NCBI RefSeq assembly: GCF_030684315.1
Contig: NC_081373.1
Coordinates: 32,589,989 to 32,653,988, forward strand
Direction: 5' to 3'
From: Stegostoma tigrinum
Taxonomy: Eukaryota
Length of the DNA stretch: 64,000 bases
In this document: one piece after another, positions 1-63,270 of the stretch
How the letters are laid out: each line of letters begins with the position of its first letter
Position numbering within the stretch: the stretch's first letter is position 1
The notes under the pieces: model-generated
Databases searched by the model: none
Told to the model about the DNA's origin: nothing
What the model saw: only the letters and a program-made list of their open reading frames with translations
Program-made: the position numbers and the translations under genes

Positions 1-815
1 TTCCATATTAAGCAGAGGTTCACCTGCACATCTGCCAATGTGGTATACTGCATCCATTGTACCCGGTGTGGCTTCCTCTACATTGGGGAAACCAAGCGGA
101 GGCTTGGGAACCGCTTTGAAGAACACCTCCGCTTGGTTCGCAATAAGCAACTGCACCTCCCAGTCGCAAACCACTTCCACTCCCCCTCCCATTCTTTAGA
201 TGACATGTCCATCATGGGTCTCCTGCAGTGCCACAATGATGCCACCCGAAGGTTGCAGGAACAGCAACTCATATTCCGCTTGGGAACCCTGCAGCCCAAT
301 GGCATCAATGTGGACTTCACCAGCTTCAAAATCTCCCCTTCCTCCACCGCATCCCAAAACCAGCCCAGTTCATCCCCTCCCCCCACGCACCACACAACCA
401 GCCCAGCTCTTCCCCTCCACCCACTGCATCCCAAAACCAGGCAACCTGTCTCTGCCCCCCTAACCTGTTCTTCCTCTCACCCATCCCTTCCTCCCACCCC
501 AAGCCACACCTCCATCTCCTACCTACTAACCTCATCCCACCTCCTTGACCTGTATGTCTTCCCTGGACTGACCTATCCCCCACCTCCCCACCTATACTCT
601 CCTCTCCACCTATCTTCTTTTCTCTCCATCTTCGGTCCGCCTTCCCCCTCTCCCTATTTATTCCAGGGTCCTCACCCCATACCCCTCTCTGATGAAGGGT
701 CTAGGCCCGAAACGTCAGCTTTTGTGCTCCTGAGATGCTGCTTGGCCTGCTGTGTTCATCCAGCCTCATATTTTATTATCTTGGATTCTCCAGCATCTGC
801 AGTTCCCATTATCAC
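1..815 (+). mobile_element. 3' end of a Penelope-like retroelement: GIY-YIG endonuclease C-terminus, C-rich 3' region, hammerhead-bearing pseudo-LTR
   Basis: Frame is open from base 1: FHIKQRFTCTSANVVYCIHCTRCGFLYIGETKRRLGNRFEEH...VANHF...LQPNGIN (VY...YIG, R..EH, HF and GIN motifs of PLE endonucleases). The terminal sequence 717-815 recurs at 50433-50540. Confidence 0.9.
687..720 (+). ncRNA. Minimal type-I hammerhead ribozyme motif, core intact
   Basis: CTGATGA (689-695), A, GGG-tctagg-CCC stem II, GAAA (709-712), palindromic ACGT helix III, predicted cleavage after GTC (716). Stem I is only CT/AG (2 bp). Confidence 0.75.
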
Positions 816-7150: not shown

Positions 7151-7734
7151 GCTGCACGAGCCTGACTATAGCTAGATCTTCTGGTCAACATTGATGCTGT
7201 GAGCCTTGGTGCTGCTCACAAAGACTTCTGTGACCAGACCTTTTTCTGATTTTTCAGCCAGGACTTCTAATCCCTCAATGGTCAAAGTGAGGTGACACCT
7301 CTCCTTTTAGAACATGAGTTGCCATTATTTGGGTAGCTCCTGAGAAGGTTCCAGGTTTTTGGGTGAGTTGGTGGATGGCAGAGTGGATGGTTGGGCAGGT
7401 TGGCGTGTGGGCAACTTTTTTTTTAAACCCCATTTAAGTATTCAGGTAAATCCCATATTTCTGTCCCAAGTCTCTGACACTAATGTTTCCATGATCACAA
7501 ATGCCTAATCCCACTTCATAGTTGTACTTGCTGTCCAAATTTATTACCTACACTTTGTGCAAATACGCATATGCATTCCAAATGTAATTTTAAATTTATT
7601 TTCTTTGTTTGCATCTAACTTCATTATTTTAATTATCTTTCCTAGTCTTCTGTGTTGCTTGCTTTTTTAAATACTATATATGAATACTGTTGAATTATTT
7701 TAATCCTTCCTTTGCAGCACATGTAAATATTGTT

Positions 7735-25865: not shown

Positions 25866-25975
25866 TAGTAGGAACAGCAGATGCTGGAGAAGCTGAGATA
25901 ACCAGGTGTAGAACTGGATCAACACAGCAGGTCGAGCAGGAAGGCTGGCGTTTCGTGCCTAGACCCTCCTACAGT
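25866..25975 (-). mobile_element. PLE terminal unit with degenerate hammerhead, followed by a (GTCTTT)-like simple repeat to about 26022
   Basis: Minus strand reads ctgtagga-gggtctaggcac-GAAACGCCAGC..., homologous to 689-815. Confidence 0.7.
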
Positions 25976-49313: not shown

Positions 49314-50374
49314 GTAAGTGTTTTAAATCTTGTTAGCTCTCAATCTTTGACCAAATCTTTGTTTAATATTATCAATATGTTTATGTTTAAGGATACCTGT
49401 AAAATGTATAAATTGCAAAGCAATGTCAATGTGTTTGATTTTTGGGGTAACATGACAAATATATTGAAAATTCTATTATTGTATTAGTTCCCTGTATAAA
49501 TCTATAATGGCCTAAAGACCTATATTGTGAAATTAGCATTTTCATGTGGGAGAATTTTTGTAGCTGGACAACAATATTGTAGTGCTTTGTTTATATGATA
49601 CCATAATATCTAAACATGGAATGAAGATAAGTATTTTCTACTAACAAATGTAATGCTGCTTTATCTTGAATGCTCTTGGTGGGCGGTAGCTGTAAAAAGT
49701 CTCATTGATAAATCCCCTTTTCTGAGTAGGACCCCTCCCTCTCTCTCTCCCTGCTCCCCCACCTGCTGCCTACCCTAATCTTAGTGTCAGCCAGATCCTG
49801 GTTCTTTGCTAGGACTGGATCTAGTTCCAGCAGTACTGGTAGTGTTGTTGGAATTGGCCACCTGTTGGTTAGTATAATTTAGTTCTCGGACGTGGAACAT
49901 CCTCCCAAGATGGGGGCCCTTTGTTTTCTAATGTGGCATTTTTTTTTGGAGTAATTGTCATTTTATCAGATGAAAGCAATGAAAATTTAGAAATCTGATG
50001 ATTAAAATCTCAAAATTACTAAGTATCCTATAAAACCATGGCTGTCCATTATCACATTAAATTATATGTTACACATAAAATTATGATAGTTAAAAGCCGA
50101 TTGTTAAGACGGTCTGATTGCCTTATTAGCTCTTTTTTCTTAAAAAACACATTTTATCTGTTTGTGGTAGGCTACATTTCAGTTGATTTAATTTATGCTA
50201 TGTCTAGCTTTCATTTCTAATTTTTGGTCCTTCTACATTTTCTTGTTTATTATCAGCTTGTGCAATTCTTTGACTTTTGCTTTATAGTAACGTAGGATAC
50301 TCTTGTCTATATGTCCTTGCTTATTCTTTTTATGTTCTTGTTCATGCTTAAAAACAGCTAGCCAAAATATTGGA

Positions 50375-50540
50375 TAACAAAGTGTGAAGCTGGATGAACG
50401 CAGCAGGCCAAGCAGCATCTCAGGAGCACAAAAGCTTTTGTGCTCCTGATGCTCCTGAGATGCTGCTTGGCCTGCTGTGTTCATCCAGCTTCACACTTTG
50501 TTATCTTGGATTCTCCAGCATCTACAGTTCCCATTATCAC
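50375..50540. mobile_element. Palindromic PLE-derived mini-element with 15-bp TSD
   Basis: Arms centred on AAAAGCTTTT (50430-50439). TSD agccaaaatattgga at 50360-50374 and 50541-50555. Right arm is nearly identical to 717-815. Confidence 0.9.
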
Positions 50541-51700
50541 AGCCAAAATATTGGAGTCTCTTTTAAGCTCAGCTGTCATTGTGTTCTATTCAGCATAATT
50601 ATGATTGGGGTTACAACATAGGTCTGCTGTAAATTAGTGTTGGAATTAGGTTAATTAGTGGTGGAGTTTGAAATATTGAGTGTGGAACATTCCACTAGTT
50701 TAAGTTATGTTTCTGGCTGATGTTCTCAGAGATGTTAATGCTATTTTTGTGGAAAATAAAATTGGAAAATTTCAGTAGAATGACCAGAAGAATGTAGAAC
50801 TTAAAATGTAGATAAATGTCAAGGCAAAAGTTACAGCCAACTTGAAAGTATAAATTTCCCTGAAGTGCTGAATGACGGTTTATTTGAAGCATGTATTTGG
50901 GCTTTGTCTAGATTTGAGAAAGACATGGGTTTTGTGTTGAACTTGGTTGATTACTGCCAACAAATATAATTTATGCTAAACAGGGTATTGATTTAACTTG
51001 TCAACGGAGAATTCTCTCAAATTGTCACCAAATGTGGCCCATTGGTTACCCATGGCAGCAATATATGTGCTGAAGTCAGAGCGATAATATTATAAAGTGT
51101 TCTTGGTTTCCCCTTACCATTCTGTAGCGAGCCACCTTTCAAAATATTTGGTGTACTGCTACTCTGCCTGTTCAGTAATGTCCCTATCACATCCTATTTG
51201 TGGAAGGTGGATTCAACTTTACAGTGTTTCCGTTGAAAGTAATATAGTGAAGGAGATTTTAAAAAAAAGACTTGGAAAGGAATTGTTCATGAAAAATGGA
51301 TGTTCCCTGGCTAGGTTAGCATTTATTGCTCTTCATTAATTGCCCTAGAGAAGATGATGGTGAGCTGCCTTCTTGAATTGTTGCAGTTTTTAGTGGTGTT
51401 AGGAAGCAAGTTCCACGACTTTGACTCAACAACCGTGAAGATTAGATAATGTAGTTGCAAGTCAGGATGCTGTGTAGCTCTGAGGGAACCTTGTCATGGT
51501 GGTGGTCCTATGTATCTGTTTCCCTTGTCTTAGGTTGTTCATGGGTTTGGGAGGTGAATTGAATAATTTGTTGGCAGTACTATTGAAATGGGAAGGGTGT
51601 GATTAATCAGGATCCAAAACATTTTTCAATGTAATACATAAAACATAAGATTAGATAGATTGGTCCTAAAGGGATGAATTCCGTGCAGGTGGATGGATCC

Positions 51701-54150: not shown

Positions 54151-54330
54151 AGAGATAGTAAGAGCTGCTGACGCTGGAGTCCGAGATAACAGTGTGGAGC
54201 TGGGGGAACACAGCAGGCCAGCGTAATTAAGATTTTCTGAAGAAGGGTCCCGACCTGAAACATCAGCTTTCCTGCTCCTCTGATGCTACCTGGCCTGCTG
54301 TGTTCCTCCAGCTCCACACTGTCTTATCTC
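54151..54330. mobile_element. Inverted-repeat PLE-derived cassette with + strand hammerhead (54237-54268); related solo fragment at about 53894-53961
   Basis: Arms gagataacagtgtggagctgggggaacacagcaggccag and ctggcctgctgtgttcctccagctccacactgtcttatctc. Core CTGAAGA-AGGGTC-cc-GACCT-GAAAC-ATC-AGCT. Confidence 0.8.
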
Positions 54331-62745: not shown

Positions 62746-63095
62746 TAGACAATAGGTGCTGGAGTAGGCTATTTGGCCCTTCGAGCCAGCATCACCATTC
62801 ATTTTGATCATGGCTGATCATCCACAATCAGTATCCTGTTCCTGCCTTATCCCCATAACCCTTGATTCCACTATCTTTAAGAGCTCTATCCATCTCTTTC
62901 TTGAAAGTATCCAGAAGGTTGGCCTCCACTGCCTTCTGGGGCAGAGCATTCCATATATCCACCACTCGCTGGGTGAAGAAGTTGTTCTTCAACTCTGTTC
63001 TAAATGGCCTACCCCTTATTTTTAAACTGGTTCTGGTCTCGCCCATCAGCAGAAACACGCTTCCTGCATCCAAAGTGTCCAATCCCTTAATAATG

Positions 63096-63270
63096 GATGT
63101 GAGTTTGCCCGCTTAGCTAGAAGGTCAGTTTTCAGACAAGCTTCGTCGGAGGCTCACTGATGATGTTACCTAGAATGGTGATGAAACGTCTGAAAACTAA
63201 CCTTCCAGCTCAGCGAGCAAACTCACATCCAGAACCTCAACCTGAGCTACAAATCCTCTCAAAACTCGCT
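63096..63270 (+). mobile_element. 175-bp inverted-repeat PLE-like mini-element with 14-bp TSD, inserted in CR1
   Basis: TSD atcccttaataatg at 63082-63095 and 63271-63284. Arms at 63095-63137 and 63188-63230. Confidence 0.88.
63154..63193 (+). ncRNA. Minimal type-I hammerhead ribozyme motif, core intact
   Basis: TCA-CTGATGA-T-GTTACC-tagaat-GGTGAT-GAAAC-GTC^TGA. Stem I TCA/TGA, 6-bp stem II with G-U pairs, palindromic ACGT helix III. Confidence 0.8.

Follow-up and report, generated by a model that had tools for sequence, protein, structure and literature searches.

A hairpin insertion in Stegostoma tigrinum that probably records priming by both target ends on a hammerhead-cut Penelope-like RNA

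In the 64-kb stretch of Stegostoma tigrinum DNA analysed here (the window), a short inverted insertion at 50360-50555 has its apex exactly where a hammerhead ribozyme, present in a Penelope-like element (PLE) at the start of the same window, is predicted to cut. The locus raises the questions of whether this apex records cleavage of the RNA in vivo, and how one stretch of the element came to be copied in both orientations. The original prediction proposed that a single cDNA had run to the 5' end of a self-cleaved RNA and folded back on itself. From the junction sequences here and elsewhere in the genome, we consider it very probable that the junction records hammerhead cleavage in vivo. The hairpin itself is a minimal head-to-head Penelope-like insertion, probably made by priming from both target ends on hammerhead-cut RNA and not by fold-back.

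The insertion and its parent element

The features of the element and of the insertion are as follows (window positions, which for the first 815 nt are also the element positions).

1-815, forward strand: 3' end of a longer member of this PLE family, with the GIY-YIG C-terminus (frame 1) followed by the pLTR end with hammerhead and tail
686-718, forward strand: minimal type I hammerhead in canonical numbering (architecture as described in PMC4209133), with core 689-716, 5-bp stem II, palindromic ACGT stem III, 2-bp stem I and predicted cut 716/717
50360-50374, forward strand: left copy of the 15-bp target-site duplication (TSD), read from the sequence and present as a single copy at the empty site of a relative; its last 2 nt (GA) also fit the start of the short arm
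50375-50436, reverse strand: short inverted arm, by arm alignment, from a putative second RT start (element ~778-780) to the predicted cut (717)
50433-50436, no strand: AGCT apex common to both arms, the first four bases past the predicted hammerhead cut
50433-50540, forward strand: long direct arm, element 717-815
50441-50458, forward strand: 9-nt tandem duplication TGCTCCTGA x2 (50441-50449 and 50450-50458), in the long arm only
50506-50540, forward strand: 35-nt PLE tail (as defined in PMC11167929), between the two putative RT starts
50541-50555, forward strand: right copy of the TSD

On re-examination, the 166-nt insertion, its perfect 15-bp TSD and the AGCT apex all hold. Within the 64-kb window, AGCCAAAATATTGGA occurs only at 50360-50374 and 50541-50555, where the repeat ends without further extension, and the insert between the two copies spans 50375-50540. 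A perfect palindrome centred on 50434/50435 extends for 15 bp each way, up to the 9-nt duplication. The short arm corresponds to element 717-780, including 2 nt in common with the target copy, while the long arm runs from 717 to 815 and so carries an extra 35 nt at 50506-50540. The arms fit these two intervals only and the hammerhead core is absent, in agreement with the proposal that the insert holds nothing but post-cut sequence. The tail and the duplication noted earlier in the right arm are both present, the former being the known PLE tail rather than a peculiarity and the latter likely a one-off slippage.

In a related organism, contigs of two runs have 50364 followed immediately by 50546. 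The missing 181 nt equal the 166-nt insert plus 15 nt, indicating a pre-insertion allele with one target copy and without a longer loop. In raw reads from the same species, the strand switch at 50436 is found in 180 reads with 78 different starts (pooled over all such copies), so the junction is not an assembly collapse, although no single read or contig bridges the whole insertion at 50360-50555. Where a loop-retaining version was to be looked for, the orthologous locus showed an empty site and the reads showed the apex switch.

The parent belongs to a very large family (family 1; 133,523 arms match one anchor). RT-like broken frames with an LRYVDD motif lie upstream of the window, and the frame-1 fragment used as query matches Pfam GIY-YIG with E=2.8e-4 (21.5 bits, slightly below the 22.6 cut-off). 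The traits of EN+ Penelope-like elements are present, namely a C-terminal GIY-YIG after the RT and a pLTR with hammerhead, inverted 5'-truncated copy, 30-40-nt tail and TSD. We take the cysteine pattern before the GIY-YIG to be Neptune-like. No long intact PLE frame was found in the five loci fetched for it or beside the window, and the loci fetched in the hunt for a full-length parent were short tandem derivatives. At 8.1-8.8 kb upstream of the window, and thus upstream of element 1-815, lies an inverted copy of the family end that is 643 nt long and lacks the tail, together with nested pieces; its target duplication is not established. The window also contains older family 1 relatives at 25871-25967 and 54154-54329, the latter an inverted pair that shows this tail asymmetry too, and, from 36532 onward, a degenerate motif resembling a hammerhead, from a third family (CTGAGGA core).

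The reference element has the motif order CTGATGA, 5-bp stem II, GAAA-CG-TC. Family 1 and a second hammerhead-bearing PLE family (family 2) both have the CUGANGA and GAAA boxes, G10.1-C11.1 in stem II, U16.1, a cleavable C17 and a palindromic stem III. Stem I measures 2 bp in family 1 and 3 bp in family 2, where 3-5 bp is usual for the minimal type I form; a D. virilis variant likewise has a 2-bp stem I (PMC4209133). Rfam at the gathering threshold returned 0 matches in the 64-kb window. The minimal hammerheads of PLEs are described as cleaving weakly in vitro, with in vivo evidence stated as none (PMC4209133).

Junctions at the cut across the genome

The exact junction occurs at 709 or more genomic sites, and a reversed control pattern at 0. 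A count of copies with distinct TSDs had been proposed as a check: in the 51 hairpins compared (the one in the window and 50 listed on C1), the target duplications are all different, 33 of them 13-16 bp long. In 50 of the 51, the long arm stops at element 811-815 or a few nucleotides beyond, and short-arm ends peak at 778-782. The two arms of each copy agree in subfamily and have rarer variants in common, with at least five variant types represented. Together with the differing target duplications, this agreement indicates that the form arose many times, from one source per event; it does not discriminate between fold-back and twin priming, and gene conversion may contribute to it. A retrozyme or self-propagating hairpin mini-element was also considered and rejected, as the insert has no core and the hairpins come from several subfamilies, with arms matched within copies.

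Hairpins also form at palindromes away from the cut, a point that had been overlooked, as had the fact that the hairpin is a minor class. Symmetric apices number 709 at AGCT, 272 at GGCC in stem II, 50 at ACGT 5 nt upstream and 23 at a downstream GGCC. These controls show that palindromes do make hairpins, with AGCT just 2.6-fold over the best control. Of near-apex junctions, 24 of the 50 among the matches listed (of 1,859) have the AGCT-apex form, and a CTAG apex was found in none of the 50 among the matches listed for looped inverted sites (of 7,334).

Since the AGCT apex is confounded by microhomology, we examined palindrome-free contexts. The first consists of head-to-tail joins, in which a pLTR piece comes after interior sequence. 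All 34 matches, at 31 loci, were listed, and 32 restart at AGCT; the remaining two are a restart within the core and a trimmed join. About nine different interior ends are joined in this way, with fillers of 0-3 A and a few 1-3-nt ambiguous overlaps; about 19 of the 34 jumps have one common interior end, and some of these may be related by descent. The 30-nt gap limit of this search hides far-upstream restarts. When these were sought, 100 matches listed included about 17 restarts at 683-691, 5 at the cut and none at 692-716.

Family 2 provides the second context, with a cut that is not palindromic.

63094-63270, no strand: inverted pair of the second hammerhead PLE family, cut GTC^TGAAAAC; independent control

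The apparent target duplication of this pair is ~14 bp, and one of its arms ends 3-4 nt past the cut. Across the genome, 50 of 51 near-apex junctions of family 2 were listed; both arms end at the cut in 13 (8 blunt, 5 with filler), one arm does so in 12, 8 use the ACGT palindrome and 17 are of other kinds. Pooled family 2 arms (100 listed of 310, with 18 indels dropped, and 74 of 74, with 12 dropped) include 24 that end at the cut, whereas 21 other positions average 5.7 (Poisson 1e-8). Without the blunt hairpins, which pass the filter by construction, 14 remain at the cut (~0.002, by hand). Family 1 has such joins too: 10 of the 50 among the matches listed (of 119 sites) are blunt or filler joins with both arms ending at the cut.

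Non-hairpin arms of family 1 gave a mixed picture. In set A (100 listed of 2,784, 7 dropped; tallied by eye), the cut is the mode with 12 ends, five neighbours have 5-7 each, and past the cut 1-4 arms end at +3 to +9 yet 11-12 at +11/+12. In set B (100 listed of 1,532, 3 dropped; tallied by eye), the cut is not the mode, with 8 ends compared with 14 seven nt short of it, and the density steps down from 70 arms over the 11 positions up to and including the cut to 7-8 over the following 9. A scripted recount, covering 30 loci of each search, agreed on the number of arms at the cut in three sets and differed in the fourth (3 vs 4).

The prediction that breakpoints would be enriched at the cleavage site is thus borne out for hairpins, jumps and family 2, but most arms read through. 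Exact hairpins account for 1,418 arms, ~1% of the 133,523-arm anchor count. Among 100 arms listed of these 133,523, 4 end at the cut, ~37 at 684-697 and ~53 read on (by eye), and none end in the 16 positions after 684-697. Joint counts from raw bisulfite reads, used qualitatively only because bisulfite blurs joint positions, were 44-47 per run for the 719/720 joint vs 320-354 for the 690/706 joint; joints with 690 and 700-710 exceed the 719/720 joint several-fold. Cut-end templating is therefore a minor route. The main family 1 stop is a sharp edge at 684-691, just 5' of the core and ~33 nt upstream of the cut, possibly, at a guess, a transcription start.

The claim that the RNA self-cleaved at the apex is nonetheless supported by three junction contexts, two of them without the AGCT palindrome. 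The head-to-tail jumps and the family 2 joins at the cut indicate that cut RNA was likely a template in vivo. Position 717 could instead be a real stop that is no cleavage product, through RT stalling at a folded (dimeric) hammerhead or through some other RNA end. A pair of motif copies can be folded together into a long duplex, breaks cluster in stem II too, and stem I is weak. We nevertheless judge such a stop unlikely, because it matches the scissile bond to the exact base in two families whose stems I and II differ, and because the break density drops right past the cut (70 vs 7-8, by eye), where a stall would be expected to smear.

How the two arms may be made

The arms of a hairpin begin at two fixed places. 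One long-start arm (~813) is paired with one short-start arm (~780) in 46 of 48 hairpins, irrespective of the apex position, and the same pairing holds in four other locus sets (6/6, 19/21, 8/8 and 14/15). In family 2, arm lengths are ~35-51 and 77-80 nt in 23 of the 24 loci examined. Beyond 815, the tail runs on into common interior sequence at 401 sites, which places both RT starts internally. The overlap between target end and short arm averages 1.5 nt in 35 hairpins, a value compatible with priming and also with end-joining.

These features fit a model in which the GIY-YIG endonuclease would nick both target strands ~13-16 nt apart. One 3' end would prime at site 1 (~813-815) and the other at site 2 (~780), with a single RNA, or RNAs of one source copy, as template. 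The 5' end of this template would likely be produced by hammerhead self-cleavage, so that each cDNA could run off the cut end and finish in AAAAGCT-3'. The two self-complementary cDNA ends may then anneal over AGCT and be filled in. In family 2, where the end is not palindromic, the cDNA ends would be joined blunt or with filler.

A Poseidon PLE protein is reported to cut and extend both strands in vitro, with two starts separated by the tail (PMC11167929). Some observations run counter to the model. Stem I of family 1 has just 2 bp. In the Poseidon study, cleavage proved unnecessary in vitro, RNA-seq gave no reads with ends at the cut, and the start site did not differ between strands (PMC11167929), whereas each insertion here uses one of each.

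A single cDNA that reached the cut 5' end and then folded back on AGCT would account for the subfamily and rarer variants common to both arms, and 2 of the 50 junctions listed read AAAAGCTGTG, compatible with a 5-nt loop. Junction palindromes have also been read as self-priming, on an antisense template (PMC3846280). We regard this explanation as improbable, because the arms start at two fixed sites ~35 nt apart and fold-back gives no reason for a short-arm end at ~780 in nearly all inverted pairs. In addition, a 2-nt loop would need to outdo a 3-nt loop by 709 to 18, and the blunt and filler joins at the cut in both families cannot be made by self-priming. The fold-back step of the original prediction is thus disfavoured.

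Arms that passed the site could also have annealed at AGCT and been trimmed, with no cleavage at all. The 272 GGCC apices and the ACGT apex of 8 of the 50 family 2 junctions listed fit this route; we hold it to be very unlikely, as the neighbouring ACGT palindrome of family 1 gives only 50 and the head-to-tail jumps and family 2 blunt joins reach the cut without such microhomology. It is scarcely credible that a longer cassette lost its loop later (the alternative offered originally, unsupported given the relative's empty site and the 709 copies), that the assembly collapsed, or that one hairpin unit spread as a mini-element: palindromes are unstable and difficult to assemble and nothing bridges this locus, but raw reads contain the apex, looped inverted copies are assembled at 7,334 sites, and hairpins of several subfamilies have matched arms.

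Comparison with known systems and related structures

Priming by both target ends resembles LINE-1 twin priming, in which the second target strand primes internally to give a 5' inversion with a microhomology join. In both cases there is internal priming by the second strand, inversion and microhomology. In LINE-1, unlike here, the arms are not mutual duplicates and the internal site varies; here the same stretch is copied from two fixed sites. In R2, the cut of an HDV-like ribozyme sets the template 5' end, which is visible in genomic junctions. In R2 this route predominates, whereas in the present element it is minor.

Insertions of EN+ PLEs are described with an adjacent inverted pLTR, an optional 30-40-bp tail, a TSD and a junction palindrome, the last ascribed to self-priming on an antisense template or left undefined (PMC3846280, PMC8557442). 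The hairpins share with these the head-to-head arms, the tail on one arm, the target duplication and the palindrome at the inverted junction, and differ in containing post-cut sequence only and in a junction registered on the hammerhead cut. With regard to the self-priming reading in PMC3846280, the present data favour two primed cDNAs. As with the Poseidon protein PAc (PMC11167929), both strands would be cut and extended, from two internal RT starts separated by the tail, with a pLTR hammerhead upstream. In contrast to that system, genomic junctions here record the cut end; the main text of PMC11167929 is without discussion of inverted insertions. The hammerheads resemble the minimal PLE forms of PMC4209133 in the type I core, the extra base before stem II, the palindromic stem III and the short stem I, and in having copies close together on opposite strands. 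Circular templates are proposed there (PMC4209133), whereas the run-off ends seen here would mean that the cut RNA is linear in at least some cases.

The text available of PMC4209133, PMC11167929 and PMC8557442 leaves open whether the minimal hammerheads of metazoan PLEs cut in cells and how the inverted structures originate. The architecture is already published. Our literature search turned up nothing that connects the junctions of PLEs with the hammerhead cut or with twin priming, with subscription papers and supplements (e.g. Fig. S2 of PMC11167929) outside the search and an earlier mention possible. The junctions would allow the cut to be read from genome sequence alone in two families, and the model, which is testable, ties published two-start biochemistry to published head-to-head architecture. 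More broadly, we lean towards the view that dual-site twin priming by PLEs explains tail, inverted copy and palindrome together, that the hammerheads cut in the germ line, and that units of ~175 nt arose by RT jumps between short, cut, oligoadenylated RNAs. If true, every PLE-rich genome would hold a base-exact, countable record of in vivo ribozyme activity. As the products of cut RNA are for the most part dead stubs, cleavage may hold transposition back instead of driving it.

Several tandem structures were seen alongside the hairpins. Units of 175-179 nt arranged head to tail, each reaching from the cut as far as a fixed interior end (CCGGA) with 0-3 A added, occur at C10:101532946, C49:27773892 and C4:54114524, and units of this kind carry the locus labels L297, L298, L292 and L293. 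Two loci (L300, L305) combine an AGCT hairpin with a head-to-tail unit, recording the cut three times per insertion. At L249 (1038-2298; C1:140.329 Mb), eight head-to-tail units of 166 nt each start at the hammerhead core, in an array that looks satellite- or retrozyme-like; similar arrays have units of 313 nt (L250) and 256 nt (C5:3.383 Mb). At L171 (C6:80.036 Mb) and C9:55422759, families 1 and 2 are inserted in each other's ends.
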